From positions 3,365 through 67,364 of the forward strand of contig CAYZGQ010000001.1 in the NCBI GenBank assembly GCA_964478135.1: a stretch of 64,000 nucleotides of DNA, given 5' to 3'. The notes below the pieces were generated by a model that was not told the DNA's origin, searched no databases, and worked only from the letters and a program-made list of their open reading frames with translations. The stretch is from an uncultured Candidatus Saccharibacteria bacterium (lineage in GTDB: Bacteria; Patescibacteriota; UBA1384; GWA2-35-9; CAYZGQ01). Positions 2,288-58,163 of this stretch are shown here, piece after piece. The position numbers were made by a program, and so were the translations under genes. Within the stretch, counting starts at the first letter, position 1. The number at the start of each line of letters is the position of its first letter.

Positions 2288-3706
2288 ATGACACAGCCCA
2301 CGCGGGTCTACATTACGACCTCGATTGCCTATGTTAACGCGCCGCCTCACATCGGTTACGCTCTAGAATTGATCCAGGCCGATGTTTTGGCCCGCTACTA
2401 CCGTCAAGAGGGAGCTGAAGTCTTTTTTCTCACCGGGACTGACGAGCATGGCCAGAAGAACTATCAAACAGCCAAGGCGGCTGGCCAAGATACTCAAACG
2501 TTTATCAATGCGATTGCCCCAAAATTCAAGGCTTTAACCAAGGCGTTGAACATTTCCAACGACGATTTTATCCGTACTTCGGATAAAAAACGCCATCATC
2601 CAACAGCCCAGAAATTTTGGCAGGCGCTTGATCGGGCAGGCGATTTGTATAAGAAGCGCTATCAGGGCCTGTACTGTGTCGGTCATGAGTCATTCATCCT
2701 CCAAAAGGAGCTGGTGACTGGTTTGTGTCCGGATCACAAGACCAGGCCAGAGTTGATTGACGAAGAAAATTATTTTTTCAGACTTTCCAGATACCAAGAC
2801 GAGCTCAAGCACCTGATCGAGAGCGATCGGATAAAAATTGTACCGGCCAATCGCAAGCACGAAAGCCTTAATTTTATCGATCAAGGTCTAAAAGACATTT
2901 CATTCTCTCGCTCCAAGAAAACTTTGCCTTGGGGTGTCGGAGTGCCCTCTGATCCAGATCAAGTTATGTACGTCTGGGCCGATGCCCTGACTAACTATCT
3001 TTCGGCAATCGGCTATCACGACAACAGGCATATCAAGTGGTGGAATCAAGCCGATCAGCGAGTCCATTTGATTGGCAAAGATATCGTTCGGTTTCACGCC
3101 CTATACTGGCCGGCCATGCTCTTATCAGCCAAACTGCCAGTTCCGACCAAGTTGCTGGTTCATGGTCACATCACAGTTGAGAACCAAAAGATGTCCAAGA
3201 GTCTGGGTAATGTGGTTGATCCATTTGAGTTGATTAAACCCTATGGAGTTGATCCAGCCCGCTACTTTCTGCTGCGCCAAATCCCCACGAGCGACGATGG
3301 CGATTTTTCATGGCAACACTTCCAAGAGCGTTACCGAAGCGATCTGGCCAATGATTTAGGCAACTTGCTTCAGCGCAGTCTAGTTTTGATCAAAAAACAC
3401 AAACTGGTTATTAAACCAAGTGTTAAACCCAGCCCTATCAAGGTCAACGATCTGATCGAGCGGTTTGATCTGGCCGGCGCGCTAGACTCAATTTGGAAAA
3501 TTGTAACCGAGGCCAACAAATACGTTGATCAACAAAAACCCTGGCAGTTTGAGTTAGGCGATTCACGAGCTCGGCAGGTTCTAACCAGTTTGTACCGCCG
3601 CCTTGAAACCGTCGCGGCTGATCTTAAACCACTCCTGCCTGACACGAGCGCCAATATGTTGGGCCAACTCAACTCGAAACAACCCGAGCCACTTTTCCCG
3701 CGCTAG
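2288..3706 (+). CDS. metG: methionyl-tRNA synthetase (short form)
   Basis: 472 aa. Class I HIGH-type motif APPHIGYALE and a KMSKS loop (NQKMSKSLGN). Confidence 0.95.
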   Translation: MTQPTRVYITTSIAYVNAPPHIGYALELIQADVLARYYRQEGAEVFFLTGTDEHGQKNYQTAKAAGQDTQTFINAIAPKFKALTKALNISNDDFIRTSDKKRHHPTAQKFWQALDRAGDLYKKRYQGLYCVGHESFILQKELVTGLCPDHKTRPELIDEENYFFRLSRYQDELKHLIESDRIKIVPANRKHESLNFIDQGLKDISFSRSKKTLPWGVGVPSDPDQVMYVWADALTNYLSAIGYHDNRHIKWWNQADQRVHLIGKDIVRFHALYWPAMLLSAKLPVPTKLLVHGHITVENQKMSKSLGNVVDPFELIKPYGVDPARYFLLRQIPTSDDGDFSWQHFQERYRSDLANDLGNLLQRSLVLIKKHKLVIKPSVKPSPIKVNDLIERFDLAGALDSIWKIVTEANKYVDQQKPWQFELGDSRARQVLTSLYRRLETVAADLKPLLPDTSANMLGQLNSKQPEPLFPR

Positions 3707-3707
3707 T

Positions 3708-4553
3708 ATGTTAGTCTTGATTATTGCTGGTCTAGCGGAAAGTTTTGGCACCATTTTGGAGAAGTATTCGCTCTCGAGGGTCAGGTTGAGCGTGTCGGAA
3801 CACTTGGTCGCCCTTCATACTGGTCTGGCCCTTGTCACAGTCTTGGTTTTACCGTGGTTTGGCTCGATTAATCTAGAATTGGCGATTCAGCCGGCTAACT
3901 TATTCAAGCTTGTTTTAGTCTTGGTCATTGCCGCTGGTTGGAATCTTGGTTATGCCAAGGCACTCAAGGCCGAGTCGCTGGACGAGTTTGAAGCGATTAT
4001 TTTAATCGCTCCTTTGGCAACTATTATTTTGTCAGCGCTTTTTTTGAACTCTGAACGTGATGGGCGGATCATTCTAGCCTCAAGTCTGTCGGTGGCTGCC
4101 TTATTCTGGGCCCATATCAAACGCCACCATCTTGTTTTCAAAAGATCGAGTCGTCTTTTATTTGGTGTGGTTGGGCTAATGGCGGTCGAGGTGGTACTTT
4201 TACGCCAGTTGCTTGACGTTTTTTCACCGGCCGTTTTATACGTTTTTAGAACCGGTTTTGTCGCGTTGATTATTTTTTCTTTCTTCCGGCCACGCCTTAA
4301 CCGAGCGATTAAACATTGGCCGGTCATTCTCGGGGCGACGATCCTATTCGTGGTATTTCGACTCATCCAGTACACCGCTTTTGTTAACCAGGGAGTCGTC
4401 TACAGCACTGGCGTGCTGGTTTTGTCACCGTTTTTGGTTCTTGTGGCCGATAATCTTATCTTGAAAGAGAAGATCCAACCCCGACAGTTACTCGCTATTT
4501 TCGTGATCGTTGCCTCGATTGTATACGCCACGGTCTCAAGCGGGCGATCTTGA
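3708..4553 (+). CDS. polytopic membrane protein, EamA/DMT-like transporter
   Basis: About 10 hydrophobic segments in two halves. I set the start at ATG 3708 (MLVLIIAGLAE...), immediately after the metG stop; the ORF-track start at 3603 lies inside metG. Confidence 0.5.
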   Translation: MLVLIIAGLAESFGTILEKYSLSRVRLSVSEHLVALHTGLALVTVLVLPWFGSINLELAIQPANLFKLVLVLVIAAGWNLGYAKALKAESLDEFEAIILIAPLATIILSALFLNSERDGRIILASSLSVAALFWAHIKRHHLVFKRSSRLLFGVVGLMAVEVVLLRQLLDVFSPAVLYVFRTGFVALIIFSFFRPRLNRAIKHWPVILGATILFVVFRLIQYTAFVNQGVVYSTGVLVLSPFLVLVADNLILKEKIQPRQLLAIFVIVASIVYATVSSGRS

Positions 4554-5479: not shown

Positions 5480-6697
5480 ATGACTACTTTGGGGTTTGAA
5501 ATGATTCGAAGAGAGTTTCCAATTTTTAAGACCAATCCAGACTTGGTTTATTTAGATAGCGCCAGTAGCGCCCAAAAGCCGAGCTTAGTGATTGAGGCGA
5601 TCGAAGAGTTCTACCAAAAGCGTTACGCTAATGTTCATCGAGGATTGTATCGTCTTAGCCAAGAGGCGAGTGAGCAGTTTGAACAGGCGCGAGTAAGGGT
5701 CGCGCGCTTTATTGGGGCCCAACCACAAGAGATTGTTTTTACATCCGGGGCAACCGAGTCAATCAACCTAGTTGCTCAGGGCAGTCTTAATTCTGGCCTT
5801 AAATCTGGACATAATATTGTCATAACTGAACTGGAGCACCACTCAAACATTGTGCCATGGCAGTTGCTGACCCGAACCAGGGGGATAGAGTTAAGATGGA
5901 TTAGCTATGATCATGCTCAAGGAGGGCTGAATCTTAAATTAGCCAAAACTTTGATTGATTCAGAGACTCATCTGGTAGCCATTACCGGAATGTCGAATGT
6001 TTTGGGAGTTAAACCGCCAGTCGCTCACCTGGCGACCTTGGCTCGGAGTAGGGGGGCTCGAGTTTTAGTTGACGCGACTCAATTAGTCGTCCACCAGAAG
6101 ATTGAACTATCAAAACTTGGTGTGGACTATCTTGTCTTCTCAAGTCATAAGCTTTACGGTCCGACCGGAACAGGCGTATTATGGGTTAACCCTAAACACC
6201 ACCAGTCGTTTGAGCCGGTCTTGACTGGTTCGCAGATAGTGAGCGCGGTTTCGAAAAAAGGTCCAACTTGGCGAGACTTTCCAGAGAAATTGGAGCCGGG
6301 CACGCCCAATATATCCGGCGTGGTCGGTTTGGCCAGGGCGATTGATTGGGTAGAAAAAACTCGGTTAAAGCACCAGGCGCTTGATCAAATGGAAGGTTTA
6401 CTGGCCCAAAAGGCGGCCCAAAGCCTGAAACAGATTCCTGGAGTCAGGGTCTTGAGTGATCATTCAAACTGTAATCCGATCTTGTCTTTCGTTTTTGAAC
6501 ATGTTCATCCTCATGATGTGGCTGAATATTTAGGCCAAAACTCGATCGCGATCCGGGCCGGTCATCACTGCGCCGAGCCTCTTCATCAGTCTCTTGGGTT
6601 CTTGGCAACCTGTCGGGTAAGTTTCGGTTACTACTCGAATCTAGATGATGTTAACCGATTGGTAAGATCATTAATTAAGTTGGCCCGATATGGTTAA
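5480..6697 (+). CDS. sufS: cysteine desulfurase (class V aminotransferase, SufS/Csd type)
   Basis: YLDSASSAQKP, VHRGLYRLSQEA, the PLP-lysine region SSHKLYGPTGTGVLW, and the catalytic-Cys region RAGHHCAEPL. Confidence 0.85.
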   Translation: MTTLGFEMIRREFPIFKTNPDLVYLDSASSAQKPSLVIEAIEEFYQKRYANVHRGLYRLSQEASEQFEQARVRVARFIGAQPQEIVFTSGATESINLVAQGSLNSGLKSGHNIVITELEHHSNIVPWQLLTRTRGIELRWISYDHAQGGLNLKLAKTLIDSETHLVAITGMSNVLGVKPPVAHLATLARSRGARVLVDATQLVVHQKIELSKLGVDYLVFSSHKLYGPTGTGVLWVNPKHHQSFEPVLTGSQIVSAVSKKGPTWRDFPEKLEPGTPNISGVVGLARAIDWVEKTRLKHQALDQMEGLLAQKAAQSLKQIPGVRVLSDHSNCNPILSFVFEHVHPHDVAEYLGQNSIAIRAGHHCAEPLHQSLGFLATCRVSFGYYSNLDDVNRLVRSLIKLARYG

Positions 6698-27324: not shown

Positions 27325-27353
27325 TTGACGGATCGGTCAAACTAAGTCACAAT
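27325..27353 (+). promoter_or_regulatory. putative promoter of the 1816-aa gene
   Basis: TTGACG 27325-27330, a 17-nt spacer, then CACAAT 27348-27353. The double SD AAGGAGAAAGGAGG follows at 27390-27403. Confidence 0.4.
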
Positions 27354-34597: not shown

Positions 34598-35275
34598 CTA
34601 GCTGGCTGGCGAGGGGCTTGGGCTAGCGGCTGATTGGCCAGTTTGACGGGCGAACACAATGTAACGTTTGACGAGCGTGCCCGGAGGCCAAGAGGTTTGG
34701 AGAGTTATGGTTTTGTCTTTCGGATCTTTGGGCGTTGGGTCTAGAACCGAGAAGTCGTCAGAGGCGACCACCTTCTTGCCAAAGACCTCGTATTGGTAGG
34801 CGACATTTTTGTAATAGACGATGAACCGATCGCCTTTGTCGAGTTTGTCGATACTTTTGAAGATTTCTTTAAGTTCTGGTTTACCCGGGAAGTTTTTAAA
34901 GTAGCTCGAGTGACCGAAGATGTACATATTTCCCAGTTGGTCCGGTTTCTGGCTACCTTTTAGATGTGCGACACCGAGCTGGGAGGTGATTTTTTGATAG
35001 ACCGGTTCGTTAGCCCCGTCAACATCCGCGATAATTGGAACCCGGATGCTGATTTTTTCGATCTCAAGACCAAATTCTTTGATCTCGACTGGTTCTGGCA
35101 GGGAACTTTGATTAAGCCCTGAAGGAGAGGCAGAGGGTTGAACGATTGATACGTTCAAGCCTGACTTTACCAAAGCAAGCGTTCCGGCAACAACCATAGC
35201 GCTTGCTAGTCCAATACCAAGAATAACTAGCTTTTTTTGAGTAGTCACTTGTGGCAAGACAGATTGTGGGTTCAC
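34598..35275 (-). CDS. sortase-family protein with Ser at the catalytic Cys position (no Cys in the protein)
   Basis: N-terminal TM anchor. The His loop NMYIFGHSSY, KGDRFIVYY..VAYQYEV, and ITLQTSWPPGT..KRYIVFARQ align with sortase TLxTC...R. The nucleophile codon is TCT (plus-strand aga 34691-34693). The start overlaps the stop of the upstream LPKTG gene by 4 nt. Confidence 0.8.
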   Translation of the reverse strand: MNPQSVLPQVTTQKKLVILGIGLASAMVVAGTLALVKSGLNVSIVQPSASPSGLNQSSLPEPVEIKEFGLEIEKISIRVPIIADVDGANEPVYQKITSQLGVAHLKGSQKPDQLGNMYIFGHSSYFKNFPGKPELKEIFKSIDKLDKGDRFIVYYKNVAYQYEVFGKKVVASDDFSVLDPTPKDPKDKTITLQTSWPPGTLVKRYIVFARQTGQSAASPSPSPAS

Positions 35276-38200
35276 GCGAGCCGGCGTCGAAGGGTTACCG
35301 CGACCGATCCAGCGGCAAGAGCGGCCAGTCCGATCAAGGCCAGTAGGTTGAGCGCGAGCGTGTTGGCCCCGGTTTTCGGCAGCTCAACAACCTGCGCCGA
35401 AACCTGATCGGTGTTAATTGACTCGTTGCCAGTTGTATCGAGGGAGCGCAGGGTGTAGTAGTATGTCCCTTTGGCGGTCAGGCTGTCATTATAACTCGTG
35501 TCTGCCTTGACGGTCGTCTTAATTTTATCGCCTAGCTTTCCAGATTCACTCGAGCGGTAAATGTTAATCTTGTCAAAGTCAGAGTCGGTTGGATTTTTCC
35601 AAGTTAAACTGATCTTACCAGTGCCGGCAGTCGCTTTGACTTCGCTTGGAGCGGCCGGCGGGGCGCTGTCAGCGTTGGCCGCCAGGCCAAAGACGGTTAA
35701 GTGGGAAACCAAACAACTAACTTCGTTTTTAGTGGTGTCAACGGTGCAGTTTTCCTTAGACAGTGAACCATCGGTCTCGTTGAATGAGACGATCTGGATA
35801 TCAGCTTCTTTGACCCCGGCCGGAATATCGGATTCTTTATAGGGGAAGGTGACGGTCAAGGGACTGTTGGGAGAAGTAATGTTAGAACCATTAGAGTCGA
35901 TCGCCGTGATATTATAAGCCTTTCCAAAGACAGAGGCACCTTCTTGGGCAGGCATTTCTGCTGTGGCGCCAACATTAAGCGTGACATTAGCGTCATCATT
36001 GTTTTTATCGAGTGCATCTGCGGGCACTTGGATGTTCATACCATCGCTTAAGGAGATTGCCGTAGCCGAACCCGAATTGCCAGTTCTTGAAGCGTCAGCT
36101 GGCAAAACGTTGCTTTGGGTAGTCAAACTAAAATCTTGGGTGAGATTGGTCGTTTGACCCTTGGTGTTAACCAGTTTTTCACCTGGTAGGATTATGACAT
36201 CTTTTTGGTTATCAGCATCTTTGGCGACATCAAGGTGCCAGACAGTATCTTTGGTGGCATTCATTGAGTATTTGCCATTGGAATCAGTCCGGACTTGGTT
36301 GACAGCGCCGTCGTCGGAATAGGCGCTGACAAGGGCATTGTTGACTGTTTGAGCGCTGGAATCATTAACTGTGCCTTCAAACTTAAAGTCGGCTTTGCGT
36401 AACTTAAAGTCAACCCCAGTTTTAGTTTCTTGATTGCCCACGCTAACGATTTGTTCAGCCGGTGGTAGCCAGCCATTTTTATTCAGCACTTCGGGCGCCA
36501 TAAAAACTCGGATGTTTTGGGTTTCACTGGAAGTGACATCGATTGAGTAGCTACCATTCGTATCAGTTTGGCCACTGAATTCGAAGAAGTCAGGCACAGG
36601 ACCTTTAGTTGCGTTGCGGTTATCGTCGTCTAGGCCGTTGTCCACTTTAACTTTCGCTCCCACGACCGCGTTACCATCGGGATCGGTGACTTTACCTTGG
36701 ATTTTGCTGTCAAGGGCTTTGAGTGTTACTTTAACCTCTGCCGTTTGGCCGGCCGTCAGGCTGACTTTGTCTTTGGGGGGTACCATGGCAAAGCCTGAAC
36801 CTGGTTCGATAAAGACACCGACACGGTAGGGGCTTTGCCCGGCAACAACACTAATGTTGTTAACAGAGGCGGCTCCGCCATGACCGGCGAAATCACCCAT
36901 GACATTGACACCTTTGTCAGAAATAGCAAAGGCGTGGGCAAAGACGCCGGAAATGGCACTGCCGTCAGATTTCACTAACTTAACGGCAATGTTAGCATCG
37001 GTAGGAACCAGCTTGATATCAATTGATTTGACCTCGTTTTTAGCAAGTTTGACCTTGCTAAATCCTTCGGGCATAAAGCCGTTCATTGGCATCATTGGGT
37101 TTAATGTGTACTCATTGTCACCGGGAACTTTGATATTAGCGCTCCCACGCTGGATTGGTTTACCCAGAAAGCCGATCGTATCACTATTAACTTCCATAAA
37201 GCCAAAGCTGTCAGAGACGACAGCTTTGGTGTCAGAACGGGTAATCCTGGCCTTGATGGTGGCATCGGCGTTAAGTGCCTCGAAGGTAGCTGTTCCACCG
37301 GCTTCAACGAACTGTGGCCCGCCTTTGATCACCTTGGAACTGCCAGCCTGTTGCTCTTGATCCTTTTGACCACCTTCAGGTCCAAAGTTCTCTGACATCA
37401 CCATCACGCCGTATTTGCCCGTGCCGACCACAGGGATCGTGCCGGTTGCTTCGGTCCCAGTCAGCTTAAGAATAGTAAAGCCGAATTCACCGCCTCCACC
37501 GACGCCCATCTTAAAGACATTGGCATTCATGTCGGCGGAGCCGTTTTTAACCACGACTTTGATTGCCTTTTCTTTTTTTACCAGAGTCAGGATACCGAGG
37601 TTTTTGGTTTCGCCGGCTTTAACCGCGATTGGCTCAATGACAGGCGCTGCGAACTGGGCGGCGTTGGGATTTTGGAAGTTCGGTGGCGAAAAGATGTCGA
37701 AATTATAGCTTTTTCCTCCGGCTACTTTCACGTTGAAGTTGACCGAGGAGGCACCCGGGGTAATCTGGAGGGGCGCGCCAAAGCCAAAGTCATTACCGGC
37801 CCGGATACCAAGACCGGTGCCTTGAGCTAGGGCGGATCCATCAGGCGTGGTAATTGTACCGGTAACCGCGGCGTCGACTTTTACGAAGTTATTAATGTTA
37901 ACGGTGACTGTTTCCACTGAATCGTCGTCTTTAAAGCTAGCCTGAATTGGCGGACCGCTCATCACGAAACTGCCGGCCCCATCGCTCGGGGCATGGATAT
38001 TCCATCTACCACCCGAGAGTTTGACGCTGTAGTTGCCGCTCCCGTCGGTTTTAGTTTGGGCAAAACCACCCGCTTCTTTAAAGAAGTTTAAGCTAGTAGT
38101 GATTACAGCTTCACCGGTCGCGGTGGTTGCTTTACCGGTTAAAGTTTTGGTCGCAGATTTAAATTTAATGGTTTTGCCAGTCAATTGGCTGCCGGTGTAG

Positions 38201-38577
38201 GTACCAAGATCTGTGAACGGGGGAGAGATTAATCCAGTGGTTGAGCCGTCAAACGGTGGGAAAAGATCGGCCACGAGCTTGTCGCCGCTTTGGGTGTTAT
38301 TAGCGAAGTCTTGGATAGTTGCCAGGCCGTTAGCGTCTGAATTGCTAAATAAGGAATATTTAAAATCAATCGGATGGACGTTAACTCCGGCGTTTTTGAC
38401 CGGCGCGCCATCGGCATCCTGGATGGTAATTACAATAATGGTTTTAGCCGTGGGTGGTGGTTGGGCGAGTGAGGCGCCAGAGTAGGCGAGGACTAGGCCC
38501 GCGATAGTGAAGACGCTTGTAAGGCCGCGCCAGTACAGGCGGAAAGCACCCGCCTGGGTCGTTCCTGATTGTAACAT
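35272..38577 (-). CDS. LPKTG-anchored giant surface protein (about 1101 aa), CarboxypepD_reg/Ig-like repeats plus C-terminal FN3
   Basis: I set the start at ATG 38577, preceded by AAAGGAGGG-N4; the ORF-track TTG 38598 lies upstream of that SD. Signal peptide ...LVLAYSGASLAQ. The C-terminus has an FN3 domain (ISLTWKNPTDSDFDKINIYRS) followed by LPKTG, a hydrophobic stretch and RRRLA. Confidence 0.85.
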   Translation of the reverse strand: MLQSGTTQAGAFRLYWRGLTSVFTIAGLVLAYSGASLAQPPPTAKTIIVITIQDADGAPVKNAGVNVHPIDFKYSLFSNSDANGLATIQDFANNTQSGDKLVADLFPPFDGSTTGLISPPFTDLGTYTGSQLTGKTIKFKSATKTLTGKATTATGEAVITTSLNFFKEAGGFAQTKTDGSGNYSVKLSGGRWNIHAPSDGAGSFVMSGPPIQASFKDDDSVETVTVNINNFVKVDAAVTGTITTPDGSALAQGTGLGIRAGNDFGFGAPLQITPGASSVNFNVKVAGGKSYNFDIFSPPNFQNPNAAQFAAPVIEPIAVKAGETKNLGILTLVKKEKAIKVVVKNGSADMNANVFKMGVGGGGEFGFTILKLTGTEATGTIPVVGTGKYGVMVMSENFGPEGGQKDQEQQAGSSKVIKGGPQFVEAGGTATFEALNADATIKARITRSDTKAVVSDSFGFMEVNSDTIGFLGKPIQRGSANIKVPGDNEYTLNPMMPMNGFMPEGFSKVKLAKNEVKSIDIKLVPTDANIAVKLVKSDGSAISGVFAHAFAISDKGVNVMGDFAGHGGAASVNNISVVAGQSPYRVGVFIEPGSGFAMVPPKDKVSLTAGQTAEVKVTLKALDSKIQGKVTDPDGNAVVGAKVKVDNGLDDDNRNATKGPVPDFFEFSGQTDTNGSYSIDVTSSETQNIRVFMAPEVLNKNGWLPPAEQIVSVGNQETKTGVDFKLRKADFKFEGTVNDSSAQTVNNALVSAYSDDGAVNQVRTDSNGKYSMNATKDTVWHLDVAKDADNQKDVIILPGEKLVNTKGQTTNLTQDFSLTTQSNVLPADASRTGNSGSATAISLSDGMNIQVPADALDKNNDDANVTLNVGATAEMPAQEGASVFGKAYNITAIDSNGSNITSPNSPLTVTFPYKESDIPAGVKEADIQIVSFNETDGSLSKENCTVDTTKNEVSCLVSHLTVFGLAANADSAPPAAPSEVKATAGTGKISLTWKNPTDSDFDKINIYRSSESGKLGDKIKTTVKADTSYNDSLTAKGTYYYTLRSLDTTGNESINTDQVSAQVVELPKTGANTLALNLLALIGLAALAAGSVAVTLRRRLA
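35368..35382 (-). other. LPKTG sortase-recognition motif codons
   Basis: The reverse complement of 35368-35382 reads ctg ccg aaa acc ggg (L P K T G). It is followed by 26 mostly hydrophobic residues and RRRLA. Confidence 0.85.
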
Positions 38578-38630
38578 TATCCCTCCTTTTGAGCTCAAGA
38601 TATATTTAATTAATTTGTAATTCTGTTTTT

Positions 38631-39587: not shown

Positions 39588-39791
39588 AGTTTTGGGCTGG
39601 TTTGAGTTTGTTTCGCCGGCAATTGGTTTGAAACTGACCCAGTCTTGCCAACCGAGCTAAGATAATGTTACACTCATCAACTGGATTGGTAAAATGTAAT
39701 ACTAAAATATAGACTCTCATACTAGACGAGAGAGATTGATTTTTTCTCTCTTTATCTTTAATTGTAATTTACTTTTGTCTTGCCGATCAAA

Positions 39792-40028
39792 ATGAAAAAA
39801 AAGATCCATCCAACCTATCACCAGGCGAGCGTGAGGTGCGCCTGCGGCGCTAACTACACCGTTGGCTCAACCAAGACTAACATGAGTATTGAGGTTTGTA
39901 GCGCCTGTCATCCACTTTTTACAGGCGATGCTAAGTTTTTGGACACAGCCGGGAGGATTGATCGCTTTAAGGCGAGACTTAAACAGTTGTCCGAGGCCGA
40001 ACCTAAGACTGCAAAAAAGTTAAAGTAA
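39792..40028 (+). CDS. rpmE: ribosomal protein L31
   Basis: MKKKIHPTYH start; I moved the start to ATG 39792 from the ORF-track TTG 39780. Cys pairs C.C....C..CHPLFTG. Confidence 0.9.
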   Translation: MKKKIHPTYHQASVRCACGANYTVGSTKTNMSIEVCSACHPLFTGDAKFLDTAGRIDRFKARLKQLSEAEPKTAKKLK

Positions 40029-41404: not shown

Positions 41405-41444
41405 CCATTCTTCAAACTGTAATGTCTCAACCGATTAGTTGCTC

Positions 41445-41473
41445 TTGACAAGGCTGGTTTATGTCTTGACAAT
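41445..41473 (+). promoter_or_regulatory. putative promoter of the second LPKTG gene
   Basis: TTGACA 41445-41450, a 17-nt spacer, then GACAAT 41468-41473. A second overlapping TTGACA sits at 41466-41471. Confidence 0.4.
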
Positions 41474-41503
41474 GTAAGTAAGACACAAACCGAAGGAGGG
41501 GAA

Positions 41504-44500
41504 ATTAATTCAAGACAGAATGAGACTTGGGGGTTTAGTCTAGGAGAGTCTCTTGCGAAGCCCTTTATATGGCTAGTGCTGGGTGTTTTAGCCCTGCTCG
41601 GTCTGGTTTTAGTCAGTCCTTCGGCCGTCCAGGCCGGTGCAATCACCGGTTTGTCGGTTACAGTCAGTGACACGAGCGTCCAAGGGACGGCTGACTGGAC
41701 AATTGCCCTGACTCCAGAACAGTCAGTCCCAGCCAAGTCAAATGGCGGTCGGATTCACATGTGTGTCTATGGACCAGGCTCGATGAGTTTTCGGGATGGT
41801 TCTGTCGCGCTCGATTCGTCGGCTAGCACGAGCGGTTTGTCAATCTATGAACGGTTGGGAAATTGTATCACCCTTCAGTCAAACAGCGAGATCGCAGGAG
41901 GAACGGTTATCACTGCCAAACTGACAGGGGTTAGAAACCCAGACAAAGCCGGACGGTATGTTGGTCACATCTACAGCTCGACCTACGGCACCGCCCGAGA
42001 CGGCACCTCTCGCTGGGGCGGGCTCTACAATAGTTCTTTTACCATCGGCGATTTGACCAAGAACACTATTTCAGGTACGGTCACAGATGCCAATGGCGCA
42101 CCGGTCCGGTTTGCCTCCGTCTCTGTTTGGGGTAGCGGCGGCGGCGCTTGGGGCTACAGCTACACCGATCAAAATGGCCAGTACGCGATCGGCAGTCTAA
42201 CCACTGGCTCCTACAACTTTAGCGTCTACGGTCCCTACAACGAAGACGGTATCTTTTATTTTGCGCCTGATGTTTCGAGTATTTCAATTTCCGATACTTC
42301 GGCCACGACCAAAAACGCCAGCTTTTTAGCGACTCCCAAAACATTGCAAATTAAGGTTGAGGACGGCTCTGGTACAGCCATAACCGATGCCTATGTCTCG
42401 ATCTGGTCCAGAAACGGGAATGGTTGGGCTCAAACCAAAAACAACACCAACGGAGTCTACAAGATTAATGTTCCGAAAAACCGGACTTTTGGGTTTAGCG
42501 TTTATCCCCAAAATTGGCCTTCAACCTGGCAGTCATGCGGCAGTTATAACGAAGAAGTTACGACCGCCAACACCGATACGGCCGAGACTGTCAGTAAGAC
42601 GTTTAAGGTTTCCTCGCTCAACGCCACGGTCAAAGGTAAGATTGAGCGGTCTGACGATAGCACGCCCAAGCGCTGGTCAGTGAGCGTGAGTTTCCAGTCA
42701 AGCGGAGGTTGCTGGGCTTCAGCCGACTTTCCCGACGACACTGGTAATTTCAGCGCTAAAGTTGTCAGTGGCGAGACTATCACCGCGACTGGTTGGGTTT
42801 CGAGTGATCTCAACGAATCATTCCCAACGGTCAGTAACTTTTCGGTCCAAGCCAACCAAGAGCACAACCTGGGCGTAATCAAACTTAAAAAGCGTGATAA
42901 AAAGCTCGCTGTGACGGTTGTGGACAAAAATGGCGATCCGGTTAACAAGGCCAACGTCTACGCTTGGAAAACTGGCGGTTCGTATGAATATGCCAACGGC
43001 ACAACTGGCTCCGATGGCAATGCGGAACTCTTTTTGAGTCCAGGCAGCTGGAATGTTTCGGCCGGGCCAGAGTACCGCTGGAATGGCTCAAACAACGAAT
43101 ATGACTATGTCTCCAACTGGAAGTCTCAATTGATCAGCTTTTCCGAGTCAGACACGACTAAAACGATCAAGTTTATCTTCCAAAAGGTTACCTCAACGAT
43201 TAATGTCACCGTGACCGATGAGGCTGGGAGCGTCCTTAACCTATCGGGTAGTTTGTCGGCCAACGATGGTTCGCAAGAATGGTCAAATATCTGGTCCCAG
43301 CTCAATAGTGGCAAAGGCAAGCTTAGGGTTCCCCGAGGGACCTGGAGTGTTAACGCCAGTATTTGGGATGAGACCTATAGCTCACCAAATCCGGTTGACA
43401 TCACGATCGGTGATAATGAGACCAAAGAGATCAAGCCCAAGGCCTTGATCAATGATTCGACCATTTCCGGCAAAATCTACACAGAAGATGAAGATGGTAA
43501 CCGGACCCTGCTTAAAAACACTTGGCTTAGCATCTATGCTAACAAAAAAAATTCCTACTCTTCTTGGCGGTCAGCCTCGGTCAACCAAGAAGAAGGAACC
43601 TATTCGATCAAAGTTTCCTCGGGTGACTGGAGGCTCGGTTACTGGTTTTATAACAACAATTATATGTCAGGATACGGGAACGAAGTTGATGTATCGGTTA
43701 AATCAGGTGAAACTAAGACCCAAGATATTATTCTGCGCAAAGCTAACTACACCATCTCGGTCAAGGCGCTCGATCCAGACGGCAAGGCGCTGATGGGGGC
43801 TTGGATCACGGCTGACACGCGCAATCCTAAAGAGCGGACCGAAGCTGGTACTTGGTACTCAACCGGTACCTCAACCAATAATCAGGGAGAGGGGACGATT
43901 CAAGTGTCAGCCAACACTTACTGGATTAGTGGTTCGATGTGGTCAGGTTATATCAGTCCAGAGCGCCAAGAGGTTAAGGTCAATAAAGACAATCCAACTG
44001 CCAGTGTCACTCTCCAGTTCGGTCGGTCTGATGCGACTATATCTGGCACAGTCAAGCTCGATGACAAAGGGACTAAGTCGTTTGTTAATGCGGTCAGCGA
44101 GAAAGGCCGCTATGCCGAGACTAATTCAAGTAACGAAGGCCATTACATCCTCAACGTCTCGAAAGACGACACTTGGGTCGTCAAGGCAGTTAAAAAGGAT
44201 GGCGCAACTTTGTATCGATCAGACAAGAATCGAGTTGATCTCACTGGTAAGACCACGGGCATAGTCAATCTCGATTTGGTAAAAGAAACAATCAAGTTGC
44301 CGGAGGGGACGACCAGCACCTTTAATGCCAGCCAGTCAACTACCGTTAAGATTAAAAATGGCAATGTTGACGAAGTGATCATCACTGTTCCGACTGGCAC
44401 CCTGTCGAGCGATAATGAACAGATAACTGTAACGGCCGATGTGACCGAAGAGGTCACCGACACTTCAACTAGCGAGCCTGTTTTCGACTACGGTTATGAC

Positions 44501-45193
44501 ATCAACGCCAACGGTAGCCAATCCGGCACAATCAGCCAGTTGAAGGATAACGTGACCGTGACCGTAAACTATTCGGCCAACGAGCAGGCGATCCAAGATG
44601 AGGGAACAGAAGAGGACCTAGTGGTAGCCCGTTTCAACAACGAGAAAGGTGAATGGGAGCAACTCCAAGGTTGCGCTACAAACAAGGATGACAACACTAT
44701 TACCTGTCAAAATAATCACTTCACCAAGTTTGCGGTTGTCGCTTCAACCGACATCACCCCACCTTCTGCTCCAGGTAGCCAGAAGGCGATTGCTTCGAAC
44801 GCTAAGATTTCTTTAAGCTGGAGCAAGCCAAGCCAGGCCGACTTTGCCGGGGTTAACATCTATCGGTCAACCGAGAGTGGCAAGCTGGGTGATAAGATTT
44901 ACGGCAAAAATACCTCCACCAGTCACGACGATACGGTTCTGATCAACGACACGGTCTATTACTATACCCTCAAGTCAGTTGACAAAGCCGGTAACGAGTC
45001 AACCGCATCCGATCAGCTCAAAGCCAAGCCTTCAGCAACCTCGCCGGAGTCATCGGACGGTTCAACCACTGCCACGCTCTCAATTCTGCCCAAGACTGGT
45101 CAACCAGCCTCGCCTTTGAATTGGTTGTTGGCGATTCTGACAGTGATCAGCCTGGCCGGGGTCAGGGCATCGAGGATTGTCCGGATTAAGTGA
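41504..45193 (+). CDS. LPKTG-anchored giant surface protein (1229 aa if ATT 41504 is the start; 1205 aa from GTG 41576)
   Basis: GGAGG 41495-41499, then N4, then in-frame ATT 41504. This start adds an n-region (MNSRQNETWGFSLGESLAKPFIW) in front of the hydrophobic core LVLGVLALLGLVLVSPSAVQA. The body has CarboxypepD_reg-like repeats (ISGTVTDANGAPVRFASVSVW...TDQNGQYAIGSLTTGSYNF). The C-terminus has an FN3 domain, then LPKTG 45086-45100, a hydrophobic stretch and RIVRIK. Confidence 0.8.
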   Translation: MNSRQNETWGFSLGESLAKPFIWLVLGVLALLGLVLVSPSAVQAGAITGLSVTVSDTSVQGTADWTIALTPEQSVPAKSNGGRIHMCVYGPGSMSFRDGSVALDSSASTSGLSIYERLGNCITLQSNSEIAGGTVITAKLTGVRNPDKAGRYVGHIYSSTYGTARDGTSRWGGLYNSSFTIGDLTKNTISGTVTDANGAPVRFASVSVWGSGGGAWGYSYTDQNGQYAIGSLTTGSYNFSVYGPYNEDGIFYFAPDVSSISISDTSATTKNASFLATPKTLQIKVEDGSGTAITDAYVSIWSRNGNGWAQTKNNTNGVYKINVPKNRTFGFSVYPQNWPSTWQSCGSYNEEVTTANTDTAETVSKTFKVSSLNATVKGKIERSDDSTPKRWSVSVSFQSSGGCWASADFPDDTGNFSAKVVSGETITATGWVSSDLNESFPTVSNFSVQANQEHNLGVIKLKKRDKKLAVTVVDKNGDPVNKANVYAWKTGGSYEYANGTTGSDGNAELFLSPGSWNVSAGPEYRWNGSNNEYDYVSNWKSQLISFSESDTTKTIKFIFQKVTSTINVTVTDEAGSVLNLSGSLSANDGSQEWSNIWSQLNSGKGKLRVPRGTWSVNASIWDETYSSPNPVDITIGDNETKEIKPKALINDSTISGKIYTEDEDGNRTLLKNTWLSIYANKKNSYSSWRSASVNQEEGTYSIKVSSGDWRLGYWFYNNNYMSGYGNEVDVSVKSGETKTQDIILRKANYTISVKALDPDGKALMGAWITADTRNPKERTEAGTWYSTGTSTNNQGEGTIQVSANTYWISGSMWSGYISPERQEVKVNKDNPTASVTLQFGRSDATISGTVKLDDKGTKSFVNAVSEKGRYAETNSSNEGHYILNVSKDDTWVVKAVKKDGATLYRSDKNRVDLTGKTTGIVNLDLVKETIKLPEGTTSTFNASQSTTVKIKNGNVDEVIITVPTGTLSSDNEQITVTADVTEEVTDTSTSEPVFDYGYDINANGSQSGTISQLKDNVTVTVNYSANEQAIQDEGTEEDLVVARFNNEKGEWEQLQGCATNKDDNTITCQNNHFTKFAVVASTDITPPSAPGSQKAIASNAKISLSWSKPSQADFAGVNIYRSTESGKLGDKIYGKNTSTSHDDTVLINDTVYYYTLKSVDKAGNESTASDQLKAKPSATSPESSDGSTTATLSILPKTGQPASPLNWLLAILTVISLAGVRASRIVRIK
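45086..45100 (+). other. LPKTG sortase-recognition motif codons
   Basis: ctg ccc aag act ggt, followed by QPASPLNWLLAILTVISLAGV and a basic tail. Confidence 0.85.
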
Positions 45194-45876
45194 AATATGC
45201 TTTAACGGCACATCTTTTATCCCGGGCGGGCAAAATAGATGAGCCTGATTTGATGATACTCATAACGGAAGCGGGATAATGGTGACCGTAAGCGATCGAT
45301 CAATCGCCGACCACTTACAGGCTGGCGTAAAGACATTGATTTAACCGACAAATCTCAAAAAAGCGGTTGGTTTTTTTTGTTTTGCTCGCGCTTTGTGAAT
45401 CTTAGACCAGGCAGGATCGAGGGTGAGGTATGGGCCCGAATAATTTAGGAGTCTGCTGGAAGGATCAGTCAATGTCTGATGAGCCCAGGCTGATCAAGGC
45501 CGGTTTTACCACCTGCTATTGACAATGGGCCTTAAAAAGTGTCTGGCTCCAGGTACCTTGGACTGGGTAGGGCCCGGCAGGCCCGACATTTGTCAAGACA
45601 AACAATCGCCACGATCAGCCTCGGATCTTGCGGATCTAGAATGCCTCGCGTCTAGCAGCCTGATATAAAACACCCCGAGAGACTTGACTAGTCAAGACCG
45701 TCAGATGACACTGGAGACCGTCTGGCCAAAGGCCGACCGGATGAGCGTCCAATAAGCGTGATATCGCAATAACTAAAAAATAGGTCAATTCAGTCTGGTG
45801 GTACCAGGCCGCGGATCAGGCTCTGACTGGTTCAAGATAAAAAATAAACGGGATGGGGCAATAATCAGCCATTGGG

Positions 45877-45897
45877 GTCGCCCAAAAGGCGATTTTT
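45877..45897 (+). terminator. putative small intrinsic terminator / attenuator hairpin
   Basis: gTCGCC-caaaa-GGCGA followed by TTTTT, ending 6 nt before ATG 45904. Confidence 0.35.
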
Positions 45898-45903
45898 GAT
45901 CAA

Positions 45904-46446
45904 ATGATGGACCCAGTGGTAAGGGTGCTTGAAAAGAGTTATTCAGCCAGGCACAATTGTGTTATGATGACTGTCCTGGCGGCCGGGGTGTTTGATGTGA
46001 TACATCCTGGTCACATTTACTTTCTCGAGCAATCCAAGAAGCTGGGTGACCGCTTAGTGGTCGTTGTGACGTCTGACGAGACGGCCGAGACCCAAAAGAG
46101 ACACCCTTTTTTTAATGTTAAGCACCGGTTGTCTATCGTCCAATCACTTCGATCGGTTGATCTGGCGGTTATTGGGCAGGCAGGCGAGACCCTTAAAAGT
46201 GTGATTGATATTAAGCCAGACGTGATCGCGATCGGCCACGATCAATTCATTCAACCAATCGGTAGCAAAAGTTTAACAACTGGCATCGAGCCGGGCCGGA
46301 CAAGCGTTCAGCCCCAAGACCACGGGCTAGCCCAACTGGGCCGCGATTTGGCAAAATTGGGTTGGCGAGGTAAAATTGTCCGTATAGACAAAATGCCTGG
46401 GATTAGAGTTTCATCGAGTCGAATTAAGAAGTTACTTAGACGCTGA
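45904..46446 (+). CDS. cytidylyltransferase-family nucleotidyltransferase, RibL-like (possible FMN adenylyltransferase)
   Basis: AAGVFDVIHPGHIYFLEQSKKLGDRLVVVVTSDE (the (T/H)xGH nucleotidyltransferase motif), ...PDVIAIGHDQ..., and C-terminal RVSSSRIKKLL. This layout resembles archaeal-type FAD synthetase RibL. A more likely start is ATG 45964 (MMTVLAAG...). Confidence 0.55.
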   Translation: MMDPVVRVLEKSYSARHNCVMMTVLAAGVFDVIHPGHIYFLEQSKKLGDRLVVVVTSDETAETQKRHPFFNVKHRLSIVQSLRSVDLAVIGQAGETLKSVIDIKPDVIAIGHDQFIQPIGSKSLTTGIEPGRTSVQPQDHGLAQLGRDLAKLGWRGKIVRIDKMPGIRVSSSRIKKLLRR

Positions 46447-46487
46447 CGTTAACTCGTTTTTTCTATTAGCTAGTTTCCACCAAAACA

Positions 46488-50808: not shown

Positions 50809-51867
50809 GTGAAACTAAGAACCGTCAAGAACGTTAGTTGTTCGGGCCAACGAGTTTTGGTCAGAACCGGTTTCGATGTTCCGATTAAAAGTGGTCGGGT
50901 CCTAGATATTGGCAGGCTCGAAGCCGCTGGCCCAACCTTAAAGTATTTGATTAAGCGCCAAGCTCGTTTGATTATCGCGTCTCATCAGGGCCGTCCTGAT
51001 GGAAAATTTTTAGCCGCCTTGAGTCTTAGGCCGATCATAAAGGTGATTGAACGACTGCTTAATCGGCCGGTTATTTTTGCCAAGAGATGCGTTGGCGTTC
51101 AAACTAGAAAAATGGTCAGTCAGCTTGTGCCAGGCGAGGTAATGTTGCTTGAAAACTTGCGTTTTGAGCCGGGTGAGACGGCCAACGATCCAAGTTTTGC
51201 CCGTCAACTGGCCGGATTGTGCGACATTTATGTCAACGAGGCTTTCCCTAACTGTCATCGAAACCACGCCAGCATGACCGGTCTGGCTAAACTTGTGCCA
51301 GCCTACGCCGGGTTTCAAGTTGAACAAGAGGTTTTTCAGCTTTCCAAGCTCCTGGCGTCTCCGGCTAAACCATTTGTGGTGATTATCGGCGGAGCCAAGG
51401 TTGAGGACAAAGCGTCAGTCATCGATCGGTTAAAGAGCAAGGCCGATTGGGTGCTGGTCGGCGGTAAGACAGCCCTTGAAATTAACCAGCGCGGTTTGTA
51501 TCGAGCTGACAAAAACGTCTTGGTCGCTGATGATTTTGTCCTGGACGAATCAGGTGTCAAGCTTGATATTAGCCGAAAGGTTGTCGATTGGTTTACCCCG
51601 AAGATTTTGAAGGCCCAAACTATTTTTTGGAATGGCAATCTAGGCAAGACCGAGGATGCCCGTTTTAGGGCTGGCAGCGAGACGATTGGGGCGCTTGTGG
51701 CCAATTCGTCAGCCGTGAGCGTGATTGGCGGCGGCGATACAGCCAACCTTGTCCGAGAGTTAGGGATTGCTCGCAAGATGACCTTTATCTCAACCGGCGG
51801 CGGGGCGACGACCCAATTTCTGGCTACCGGCGGACGTTTGCCAGGACTCGAACCGCTCTATCGTTAG
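50809..51867 (+). CDS. pgk: phosphoglycerate kinase (short, 352 aa)
   Basis: GTG start. RVLVRTGFDVP, ASHQGRP, LENLRF..GE, and C-terminal ISTGGGA... Confidence 0.9.
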   Translation: MKLRTVKNVSCSGQRVLVRTGFDVPIKSGRVLDIGRLEAAGPTLKYLIKRQARLIIASHQGRPDGKFLAALSLRPIIKVIERLLNRPVIFAKRCVGVQTRKMVSQLVPGEVMLLENLRFEPGETANDPSFARQLAGLCDIYVNEAFPNCHRNHASMTGLAKLVPAYAGFQVEQEVFQLSKLLASPAKPFVVIIGGAKVEDKASVIDRLKSKADWVLVGGKTALEINQRGLYRADKNVLVADDFVLDESGVKLDISRKVVDWFTPKILKAQTIFWNGNLGKTEDARFRAGSETIGALVANSSAVSVIGGGDTANLVRELGIARKMTFISTGGGATTQFLATGGRLPGLEPLYR

Positions 51868-51971
51868 TTTTTAGACTTGTCAAGTCTACTGGTAGCCCTA
51901 CATGCTCTGAACAATGTCAGTTAATTATGATTTGAACCTTGTTAGGTTTTTGTAATTATCAGTGTCAGAGG

Positions 51972-52000
51972 TTTACAATCAAACCTTGATTAGTTATGGT
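51972..52000 (+). promoter_or_regulatory. putative promoter of the ASCH / hotdog / reductase unit
   Basis: TTTACA 51972-51977, a 17-nt spacer, then TATGGT 51995-52000. GGAGG-N4-ATG of the first gene follows at 52009-52020. Confidence 0.45.
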
Positions 52001-52017
52001 GAGCGGCTGGAGGAGAT

Positions 52018-52544: not shown

Positions 52545-53404
52545 ACAATCTTACTCTAGAAAATCTTTCCTTGCCCAAGGAAGATTATTTTAAGATCAAC
52601 TTTCAAGTTACCGATGAGATGTGCCTGGGTCATTTTGATCCCAAACGACACTACGGGGTCTTGCCTGGTGCGTACCTTTTTGGGTTGGTTTGTGATTATT
52701 TCACCCAGAATAATAACCGTTCAATCACTGCAATTACTAAAGCTCAATTTACCCGACTGATACTACCGAGCATGGAGGTGTTAATCGAAGTTTGGATCAA
52801 GGGCAATCAGGTAAGAGTGGTTTGTTTTGCCGAAGGCCGGTCGGCGGCTACCATGGATCTGTTGCTGACCGAGTTGTCCGGGTCACAGGACGATTGCCCA
52901 GGCGCAGTGTCTTTGGCCGGAACTTATCTCCCATCCGATCAACTTAATGACTTATTGCCGTTTAGTTCTGATTTTATATTGATTCGGGATGTCGTAATCG
53001 GAGAGGATTGTTCCTTCTGTCTTGTTAGATCGAAACAAGACCCTCGTTTTTTTGACGATCAAAGGTTAAAATTGTCGGGTCTGATCGAAGCCGGTAATCA
53101 TTTATTAATCACTCACGTCTTATCACTCCATCAGGAGCTCGTCGGACAGGTGCCGTTTCTGGTCAGGCTGACCGATGTCAGCTTCTCGGGCCCTCGACTG
53201 GTTAATCCGAATTGTGTTCTACTGATGGTTGATAATCTTAATATGCGAGGTAATCACGGACGTGCTCGAGTAATCGGCTGTCAGACGGATGTAACAGAAA
53301 TCTACCGGGCTCAAGTTAGCTTCCGTAGTGACTCAAGTGGTGTCGAGCATAAATACCAACCCGGTACGCCAGTACCGAGCAACCCATCCCCAGCTTTGCC
53401 TTGA
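52541..53404 (+). CDS. tandem (double) hotdog-fold protein, FabZ/FabA-like
   Basis: The N-half has CLGHFDPKRHYGVLPGAYLFG (compare FabZ GHFPGKPIFPGVLILEA). The C-half has DPRFFDDQRLKLSGLIEAGNHL. See the findings for details. Confidence 0.6.
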   Translation: MNNLTLENLSLPKEDYFKINFQVTDEMCLGHFDPKRHYGVLPGAYLFGLVCDYFTQNNNRSITAITKAQFTRLILPSMEVLIEVWIKGNQVRVVCFAEGRSAATMDLLLTELSGSQDDCPGAVSLAGTYLPSDQLNDLLPFSSDFILIRDVVIGEDCSFCLVRSKQDPRFFDDQRLKLSGLIEAGNHLLITHVLSLHQELVGQVPFLVRLTDVSFSGPRLVNPNCVLLMVDNLNMRGNHGRARVIGCQTDVTEIYRAQVSFRSDSSGVEHKYQPGTPVPSNPSPALP

Positions 53405-54152
53405 ACCGGCTAAAACGGTGGTAATAACTGGCGGATCGGGGACGATCGGTCGAGCGATGGTCTGGCAATTCGGGGCCAATGGCTGCGACGTAGTGGTCCA
53501 GTATAATAGAGACGAACCGGCGGCTCGATTTACTGCCGAGTCAGCCCAACGGCAGTTTGGGGTCAAGACCTGGCTTGTCCAGCAAGATTTTGCTCAACCA
53601 GGATCTGGCAAGAATTTCTGGCTCAATGTCAAAGCTATAGTCGGCCAAACCCCGGACATTCTGGTCATCAATGCCGGTTTCCTTGGCATCGGATCAAACG
53701 GGCTTTCCCTGACTGAAGAAGAATTATATGACAGTATCCAAGTCAACGCCGTGCAACCGTTTTTCTTAATGCAGGCGATGATGAATGACCCGGACACCCC
53801 CTCTGATTCCCAAATCTTGGTCCATCTTTCTAAGGGTTGGGACAAGTGGCTGCCCGGTTACGCTGGATTAGGCATGGCCAAAGCCCTTCTGATGCGGATG
53901 GTCATTGAACTAGCCCAAGTAGGAGCGCCCCGCCGTATTTGCGTCAACGCCATTACGAGCGACCTAGTTGCCCAGACCGACGTTATGAATTGGTTTCCCC
54001 CTCATGAGGTCGCGCTCCACCTCGATCGGATGCCCTTTGGGAGACTGATATACCCAGAGGATGTGGCAATATTTTTCTGCCACACTGCCTGTAACTTAGG
54101 TGTTACCGGCCAAAACCTTGTGTTCGATGGCGGGGTAGGGAATGTAGCATGA
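53328..54152 (+). CDS. SDR-family enoyl-[ACP] reductase-like protein (FabL/FabI-type Y-x6-K)
   Basis: VVITGGSGTIGRA (TGxxxGxG), NAG, and PGYAGLGMAKALL (Y-x6-K, as in FabI NYNVMGLAKASLE and FabL NYTTVGVSKAALE). The GTG start at 53328 has no SD and overlaps the hotdog gene by 77 nt in the +1 frame, so the start is uncertain. Confidence 0.7.
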   Translation: MTQVVSSINTNPVRQYRATHPQLCLEPAKTVVITGGSGTIGRAMVWQFGANGCDVVVQYNRDEPAARFTAESAQRQFGVKTWLVQQDFAQPGSGKNFWLNVKAIVGQTPDILVINAGFLGIGSNGLSLTEEELYDSIQVNAVQPFFLMQAMMNDPDTPSDSQILVHLSKGWDKWLPGYAGLGMAKALLMRMVIELAQVGAPRRICVNAITSDLVAQTDVMNWFPPHEVALHLDRMPFGRLIYPEDVAIFFCHTACNLGVTGQNLVFDGGVGNVA

Positions 54153-57044: not shown

Positions 57045-58163
57045 TTGGGAAAAGGAGGGATCATTAAAACAGGCGGTAAAAGGATCTTAATTTTAAACTG
57101 GTACGATAAGCGTCATCCCAAATCAGGGGGGGCTGAAGTTTACCTTGAAGAGGTGGCTAAAGAGCTTAGTTTACTTGGCCATGAAGTCCATTGGTTTGCT
57201 AGTTCCTTTTCTGGTAATACTCCCCACGAGTTAGTTGAGGGTATCACAATCGAGCGTTTTCATCAGTCGTACTTAATCAATCTAGTCAGCTTGTGGCGTT
57301 TGTTCAAGGAGCGTTCCCGTTTTGATCTGGTGATTGACGCGACCAACAAATTGCCTTACCTAACCTCGATATTTTTTAGATCAAAATCCTTGCCCTTGTT
57401 TTTGCACATCAACGATCAAATTTTTACCAAAGAATTCGGCCAGATTTTTGGTCGGCTGGGCAGGTGGTTTGAACGACAGATGGTCAAAACCTACCGTCGG
57501 CTCAAGGTTGTGGCGATCTCGAAAAGCACGGCCAGCGATCTTGAAAAATTGGGATTGTCACAAGAACAAGTCGTGATCGCGGTTCCAGGTGTTAAGACCG
57601 ATCTGTACCGCCCTGGCAAAAAATCTGACTATCCTTTGATCGTGTCGGTCAACAGACTCCGCCGCTATAAAAACCTCGACATTTTGATCAAGTCTTTTAA
57701 GGCTGTTAACCGGTCAATTCCTAAAGCCCGGCTCGTGATAATGGGCAGGGGTCCAGATTATGCCCGTTTGGTTAGGTTGATTCATAAGTTCAAGCTTGAG
57801 CAATCGGTCAGACTGACTGGATTTGTGTCCGAGAGGGAAAAAATTAACTGGCTTCAAAAAGCTTGGATTCACGTCAATCCTTCAACCAAAGAAGGTTGGG
57901 GTCTTAACGTGATTGACGCGGCGGCCTGCGGCACGCCCTCGGTCGGAAGCGATGTCGCGGGTTTGAGAGATTCGATCCAAGATGGTGCTACAGGTTGGCT
58001 GGTGCCAGTTGGAGCCGAGTCTGCTTTGTCAAGAAAGCTGATTAAAGTTTTAAAAGACCATCAGCTAAGGCGGCAGATTGGTAAACGATGCCTCGGCTGG
58101 GCCAGTCAATTCAGCTGGGCGCAGACCGCTCGAATGTTCGATGAAGTCATTAGCTCTCGCTAG
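57045..58163 (+). CDS. glycosyltransferase family 4 (GT-B)
   Basis: C-terminal EGWGLNVIDAAACGTPSVGSDVAGLRDSI (the E-x7-E region). An alternative start is ATT 57063, preceded by GGAGG-N4. Confidence 0.8.
   Translation: MGKGGIIKTGGKRILILNWYDKRHPKSGGAEVYLEEVAKELSLLGHEVHWFASSFSGNTPHELVEGITIERFHQSYLINLVSLWRLFKERSRFDLVIDATNKLPYLTSIFFRSKSLPLFLHINDQIFTKEFGQIFGRLGRWFERQMVKTYRRLKVVAISKSTASDLEKLGLSQEQVVIAVPGVKTDLYRPGKKSDYPLIVSVNRLRRYKNLDILIKSFKAVNRSIPKARLVIMGRGPDYARLVRLIHKFKLEQSVRLTGFVSEREKINWLQKAWIHVNPSTKEGWGLNVIDAAACGTPSVGSDVAGLRDSIQDGATGWLVPVGAESALSRKLIKVLKDHQLRRQIGKRCLGWASQFSWAQTARMFDEVISSR

Follow-up and report, generated by a model that had tools for sequence, protein, structure and literature searches.

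The DNA analysed here is a single stretch of 64 kb (the window), and the subject of this study is a gap at 45194-45903 between two genes of its plus strand. On the upstream side, the gap begins directly after position 45193, the end of the stop codon of a 1205-aa ORF that encodes a surface protein. On the downstream side, it is bounded by ATG 45904, the first candidate start of a gene for a RibL-like cytidylyltransferase. With this start, the non-coding stretch measures 710 nt; with the second ATG as the start of the RibL-like gene, it reaches 45963 and measures 770 nt. Table 1 collects the features of the locus.

Table 1. Features in and around the gap, with coordinates in the 64-kb window.
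Feature	Position	Strand	Basis or remark
DNA inserted between tsf and the RibL-like gene in this lineage, about 4.5 kb	41405..45963	.	tsf-ribL spacers of relatives
Surface protein gene, 1205 aa	41576..45193	+	CarboxypepD_reg Pfam domains; C-terminal LPKTG + hydrophobic + basic sorting signal
ORF-free region	45194..45903	.	no ORF of 60 aa or more; coding potential about zero or negative; mixed stops; GC 48.6%
Weak terminator-like element (A6/T8)	45343..45385	+	stem AACCGAC/GTTGGTT, long A-rich loop, then T8-G-T4
Possible sortase active-site (TLxTC) remnant, SLI*NTPRDLTSQDRQMTLETVWPK	45657..45731	+	tblastn, alignment, profile
Perfect 14-nt palindrome, CTTGACTAGTCAAG	45683..45696	.	present as described earlier
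Putative sigma-70-type promoter, TTGACT-N17-GACACT	45684..45712	+	motif class; -35 is half of the 14-nt palindrome
Small hairpin, TCGCC-CAAAA-GGCGA then T5	45877..45897	+	-6.5 kcal/mol; ends 6 nt before ATG 45904
RibL-like cytidylyltransferase (FAD synthase-like) gene	45904..46446	+	PF01467; start 45904 or 45964
Alternative promoter-like site, TTGAAA-17-CACAAT	45929..45957	+	consensus scan 9/12; between the candidate starts

An earlier note on this DNA had claimed that 45194-45903 holds no ORF of 60 aa or more in any frame and that the spacer is unusually long, and our analysis bears out both points. In the six-frame ORF list, the gap contains no ORF longer than 50 aa (45636-45788, minus strand), and the longest on the plus strand, at 45519-45668, has 49 aa. 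Once ORFs shorter than 100 aa and overlapping ORFs are accounted for, the gap is the longest gene-free stretch in the window, 3.5 times as long as the next true spacer of only 205 nt (39588-39792). The other apparent large gaps, at 53328-54152, 57045-58163, 39792-40028 (rpmE), 1955-2248 and 3603-4553, are filled by overlapping or short ORFs. The single compositional oddity of the gap is its GC content. At 48.6%, it lies above that of the AT-rich short spacers (20-45%) and is similar to that of coding sequence (50%).

The surface protein gene upstream of the gap has a paralog in the window. Both encode giant CarboxypepD_reg surface proteins with an LPKTG motif, one of 1108 aa at 35272-38598 on the minus strand and the other of 1205 aa on the plus strand, and the two proteins are 25% identical over about 1050 residues (E 7e-59). 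The pair flanks the conserved cluster of prfA and rpmE-rpsB-tsf on opposite strands. The gene of the 1108-aa paralog is followed directly, with an overlap of 4 nt, by a sortase gene of 225 aa (34598-35275, minus strand). In this intact sortase, a Ser at residue 195 replaces the catalytic Cys of the TLxTC motif (TLQTSWPP), and the same position in 142 aligned sortase homologs is Cys in 138 and Ser in only 3. Judged from these residues, the enzyme may be inactive or may use the Ser as nucleophile.

For the RibL-like gene, the reading from ATG 45904 gives a protein of 180 aa, the conserved core of which begins at residue 24. Its homologs have 133-228 aa, mostly 133-173, and in another assembly of identical DNA a product of 160 aa was called from ATG 45964. 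The protein encoded at 45904-46446 also contains an insertion of 24 residues, GSKSLTTGIEPGRTSVQPQDHGLA, that is not present in six aligned homologs. The RibL-like gene and frr are separated by a spacer of only 41 nt (46447-46487), and pyrH (UMP kinase) does not occur between them; nor was a pyrH found elsewhere in the 64 kb. The order is ribL-pyrH-frr in all three of the relatives L120, L121 and L122, with L120 being the closest relative by frr (56%).

Relatives were found by scanning genome and metagenome collections with the flanking proteins, and only distant ones were recovered. The contigs that carry the locus itself are all 100% identical to the window and represent one strain of a poorly sampled organism. 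L121 (a Logan assembly) and L122 (GCA_034680565.1) are distant Patescibacteria-type relatives, whose orthologs are 35-58% identical to the window proteins. In both, prfA on the minus strand is followed by rpmE-rpsB-tsf-ribL-pyrH-frr, and in L122 the order continues to rseP and an aaRS gene; the flanking genes in the window are as in these two. Conservation in relatives, the lack of which the earlier note had named as evidence against an RNA or regulatory role, is absent as far as it is testable, with tsf and ribL only 33 nt apart in L121 and 16 nt apart in L122. Since the gap is absent from the syntenic site in relatives, it is derived, lineage-specific DNA and not an ancient element of the locus. 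The insertion to which it belongs consists of a 171-nt spacer, the 1205-aa surface protein gene and the gap, and no direct or inverted repeats of at least 9 nt were found at its two borders.

L122 has its own ORF-poor gap of 553 nt with 52% GC between frr and rseP (5793-6345), for which neither sequence kinship to the window gap nor an Rfam match was found. Long spacers may recur around the cluster in this lineage. In L118 (1-941) and L119 (2-316), whose frr is 53-55% identical, a sortase gene and a PDDEXK_3 nuclease-like gene are located directly upstream of frr, and ribL and pyrH are not the genes just upstream of it. The frr neighbourhood appears to be a rearrangement hot spot in the group.

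We also compared the gap with other DNA. Self-comparison gave no copy elsewhere in the window, no match was found in the phage, plasmid and viral-contig collections, and similar DNA was not found among about 120 fetched loci. An origin as a repeat, MITE, mobile element or phage was rejected on the grounds that there are no further copies, no border repeats of at least 9 nt and no match in these collections. A replication origin (oriC) was rejected as well, as the gap contains no DnaA box with up to 2 mismatches and the cumulative GC skew climbs steadily through it.

The coding potential of the gap was evaluated with a 3-periodic Markov model trained on the genes of the window, for which real coding windows score 6.4 +/- 4.0 bits per 96 nt. 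In the gap, the best frame does not exceed 2.4 bits per 96 nt, and the potential is about zero or negative in all six. There are 13-17 stops per frame on the plus strand and 9-12 on the minus strand. With a single exception, every frame contains stops of all three types, which means that the lack of open frames is not explicable by a reassigned stop codon. The six-frame translations gave nothing in Pfam at E<=10, and neither did a six-frame concatenated query against 5.8 billion proteins at the same threshold. When 6443 ORF segments from the fetched loci and the window were compared with the gap by tblastn, the best E was 7.5e-4, which is not significant after multiplicity. A decayed pyrH (PF00696) was considered and rejected: tblastn was empty, a 67-sequence profile scored -3.1 bits, equal to the null median, and the position is also unlikely, for pyrH lies between ribL and frr in relatives and not upstream of ribL. 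Apart from the sortase trace described below, any hidden or decayed gene was rejected likewise, with the Pfam scan, the protein search, tblastn, the coding model and the stop-type check all negative.

On the RNA side, Rfam 15 gave no match at the gathering score in the whole 64-kb window (1-64000), in which ARAGORN found no tRNA or tmRNA either. Within the 1.1 kb at 45000-46100, there was no Rfam match even at E<=10, including the FMN riboswitch, RNase P, tmRNA, SRP and 6S. The core motifs of RNase P, tmRNA, SRP and the FMN riboswitch had previously been sought by eye and not matched, and the covariance models agree. When compared to the known bacterial ncRNAs (RNase P RNA, tmRNA, SRP, 6S, the FMN riboswitch and the large ornate RNAs), the gap is alike merely in being long, GC-normal and ORF-free, and it differs from all these families in lacking any covariance-model match. 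The proposed transcript at 45715-45900 (186 nt) folds with -57.2 kcal/mol and z = -2.18. Among 70 control windows of 186 nt from the same sequence (mean z -0.87, sd 1.22), however, 15.7% are as low or lower. Taken whole, the gap has z = -1.5 when folded as the plus strand and -2.0 as the minus strand, and sliding 120-nt windows on both strands range from -2.4 to +2.2. The folding stability of the gap is ordinary. Neither the folding energies nor the family searches support a structured RNA, and the sRNA reading proposed before our analysis finds no backing here.

The gap had also been described as dyad-rich, with six dyads listed. All six are present at the coordinates given for them, except the GGCC dyad, which was one base off. 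The description itself holds for stems of 5 bp, is weaker at 6 bp and fails at 7 bp, where no excess was found. It was found that perfect 5-bp dyads with loops of up to 12 nt occur 22 times in the gap, compared to 8.9 +/- 3.6 times in dinucleotide shuffles (none of 300 reaches 22), while 2.2% of the other 710-nt windows contain 22 or more. For 6-bp dyads the counts are 7 in the gap and 2.3 in the shuffles, and 7.8% of the other windows do as well. The single A6/T8 pair accounts for five of the 16 maximal stems, which are register variants of it. The excess of 5-bp dyads is mild.

The window contains 8 palindromes of at least 14 nt, where about 3.9 are expected. The 14-nt palindrome of the gap is therefore not significant alone; the other seven are all in coding sequence. 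Near matches with 3 mismatches number 6 in the window against 2.65 expected, a count that 3 of 100 shuffles equal. We rejected the palindrome as an operator, for this excess is suggestive but below significance. Two of the near matches fall in the spacer 51868-52017, and one of them forms the hairpin TAGACTTG-T-CAAGTCTA directly after the end of the upstream ORF 50809-51867. By their sequence and position, these relatives could be a shared operator or terminator motif, or they could be due to chance.

Two hairpins in the gap, at 45343-45385 and 45877-45897, each precede a T-run and in this respect resemble Rho-independent terminators or attenuators. They differ in having short stems or stems with many G-U and A-U pairs, and their energies (about -9 and -6.5 kcal/mol, respectively) are typical of chance intragenic sites in the window. 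The loose criteria satisfied by the hairpin at 45877-45897 are satisfied by more than 100 sites in the window, nearly all within genes, and nothing sets it apart from these numerous intragenic chance sites. For the A6/T8 element, RNAfold of 45330-45392 gives -9.4 kcal/mol, and the sliding-window z at this position is positive, which means that it is less stable than shuffles. A consensus terminator scan lists neither hairpin, and both promoter-like and terminator-like sites occur in the consensus scan at the rate expected from shuffles.

The promoter-like motif class TTGACN-N17-NANWNT has nine plus-strand matches in annotated sequence, and four of these (27325, 33418, 41445 and 45684) are intergenic and each upstream of a gene, although intergenic DNA makes up only about 6% of the window (binomial p ~1e-3). 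The site at 27325 reads TTGACG-17-CACAAT, and the site at 41445, TTGACA-17-GACAAT, lies upstream of the inserted surface protein gene and is the closest analog of the one in the gap. The site at 45684-45712 agrees with the consensus at 5/6 positions in TTGACT and at 3/6 positions in GACACT, the latter compared to TATAAT, and it is not listed in a stricter consensus scan. The leader implied by this site would be 192-252 nt long, compared to 2-103 nt at the other predicted promoters. The alternative site at 45929-45957 shares its -10 hexamer with the site at 27325. If it were used, ATG 45964 would be the start of the RibL-like gene, and the leader would be very short or missing. The regulatory reading of the earlier note survives in part: it is plausible that the RibL-like gene is served by such a promoter, with a long 5' leader, the motif class being enriched in spacers, while the attenuator has no positive support. 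In relatives, ribL is joined directly to the rpsB-tsf unit, from which the insertion has split ribL-frr-rseP here; the simplest functional reading is therefore a new promoter within the inserted DNA. TTGACT-N17-GACACT is a plausible candidate for this replacement promoter of ribL-frr-rseP.

The sole protein-like signal in the gap resembles a sortase. With the sortase of the window as query, tblastn gave one match (E 0.01) at 45672-45728 on the plus strand, located over the TLxTC motif, with DRQMTLETVWP against DKTITLQTSWP. In a profile of 142 sortase sequences, the same 14 residues, SQDRQMTLETVWPK against the consensus tkeeqltLmTCwPp with its TLxTC active-site motif, score 0.9 bits, with an empirical p of 0.024 from 500 shuffles and 0.06 from 67 genomic windows. 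A frameshift-aware sortase alignment scores 49, which is reached by 1 of 150 shuffles but by 22% of the genomic windows. Most of the gap might be read as a fully decayed sortase gene that was once located 3' of the 1205-aa surface protein gene, a possibility that we consider unlikely but by no means negligible. Such a gene would mirror the intact minus-strand pair, in which the 1108-aa paralog precedes the 678-nt sortase gene. The gap is of similar length, lies exactly at the partner-gene position of the paralogous pair and, as in pairs of sortase (PF04203) and LPxTG genes, directly follows an LPxTG-type gene. The TLxT-x-WP-like peptide motif is on the right strand and in the right place: for a sortase gene that started at the stop of the surface protein gene, its position would be colinear to within about 20 codons. 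The GC content is coding-like. On the other hand, a signal as good is found in 6% of genomic windows with the profile and in 22% with the pairwise alignment. The catalytic His and Arg motifs and other sortase segments were sought in the gap and none was recovered. Unlike sortase genes, the gap has no open frame and no significant profile score; coding periodicity is not left over, stops are abundant in every plus-strand frame, and both the Pfam scan and the search of 5.8 billion proteins were empty. Moreover, deletion or a drift in GC would be the expected fate of a pseudogene decayed to this extent. The single marginal motif hints at a fully decayed sortase gene, of which the gap would be an ancient remnant at best. 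We give very little credence to the notion that the gap encodes one or more small proteins of less than 60 aa. Short ORFs do exist in it, and the candidate of 30 codons at 45430-45522 has a GAGGG Shine-Dalgarno-like motif 7 nt before 45430 as a plausible ribosome-binding site, but the coding potential in its frame is negative, no frame has a homolog at E<=10 among the 5.8 billion proteins, and the gene callers on three assemblies placed nothing in the gap.

The remaining alternatives concern the last part of the gap as RNA. A lineage-specific sRNA of about 180 nt could extend from the promoter at 45684-45712 to the hairpin at 45877-45897, with the RibL-like gene using the site at 45929-45957 and ATG 45964. 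The promoter-like site and the hairpin with its T5 do bracket 180 nt, the second promoter-like site comes after the hairpin and before the second ATG, and the GC content is higher than in typical spacers. Nevertheless, no Rfam family is matched, the folding z is unremarkable among the controls, and hairpins of this kind are common by chance inside genes; the sequence is also absent from the syntenic site in relatives and has no homolog in the fetched loci, phages, plasmids or viral contigs. We regard such an sRNA as quite improbable, and the same holds for a second possibility, that the last 200 nt or so are a regulated 5' leader of ribL-frr, either riboswitch-like or a protein- or ribosome-dependent attenuator with 45877-45897 as the terminator. 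In its favour, the hairpin and T-run stop 6 nt short of ATG 45904, an ORF of 33 codons (45798-45899) ends within the hairpin, and a promoter-like site lies 192 nt upstream. But this ORF has no coding potential, neither the FMN riboswitch nor any other was matched at E<=10, and the fold shows no outstanding anti-terminator alternative pairing. As ribL in relatives has no leader and follows tsf after 16-33 nt, such control would have to be newly evolved. More broadly, the proposition that about 45720-45897 is a lineage-restricted sRNA or a newly evolved leader on inserted DNA, which in this ultra-small Patescibacteria-type bacterium would accompany the essential genes ribL-frr-rseP or control them, has in our estimation a low probability.

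We prefer, with a probability of about 0.55, to read the gap as the non-coding tail of about 4.5 kb of DNA inserted in this lineage, probably with a replacement promoter, and as neither a gene nor a recognisable structured RNA. Through the insertion, tsf and the RibL-like gene would have been parted by an LPxTG-type surface protein gene within the otherwise conserved cluster of prfA and rpmE-rpsB-tsf-ribL-pyrH-frr-rseP, and ribL-frr-rseP would have been cut off from the rpsB-tsf transcription unit. The gap would separate the surface protein gene from the downstream housekeeping genes, possibly by the weak terminator near 45343-45385, and it probably supplies the sigma-70-type promoter CTTGACT-N17-GACACT (45684-45712) for ribL-frr-rseP. 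The rest of the gap is probably unconstrained, and part of it may be the leftover of a fully decayed gene.

In comparison with a spacer made by insertion that contains a sigma-70 promoter and a long 5' UTR, the gap has TTGACT and the 17-nt spacing, like the other predicted promoters of the window, and the housekeeping genes downstream of it, on the same strand, were parted from their ancestral promoter. The differences are that the other spacers of this genome are much shorter and less GC-rich, that the -10 of the gap is weak (GACACT), and that its -35 lies inside a perfect 14-nt palindrome. Several observations count against reading the gap as the tail of an insertion with a replacement promoter. 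The -10 hexamer agrees poorly with TATAAT, and the implied leader exceeds those of the other predicted promoters. The coding-like GC content is unexpected for old neutral DNA or a typical promoter region, the 5-bp dyads are in mild excess, and a slack of 710 nt is unusual for so compact a genome, which argues for some kept function. Nevertheless, the gap shows nothing beyond what an insertion scar with a promoter would show.

Nothing in the gap suggests a new RNA class, and the locus matters little for RNA biology. Its meaning is for genome evolution, as a conserved translation-factor cluster, rpmE-rpsB-tsf-ribL-pyrH-frr-rseP, is broken here by a sortase-dependent surface protein gene and by the loss of pyrH. 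The long spacer would be the scar of this cluster break, and it is probably the site where the downstream essential genes gained a new promoter. If there are metatranscriptomes from the source samples, the locus would provide a simple test case for the re-wiring of transcription after insertion in compact symbiont-like genomes.
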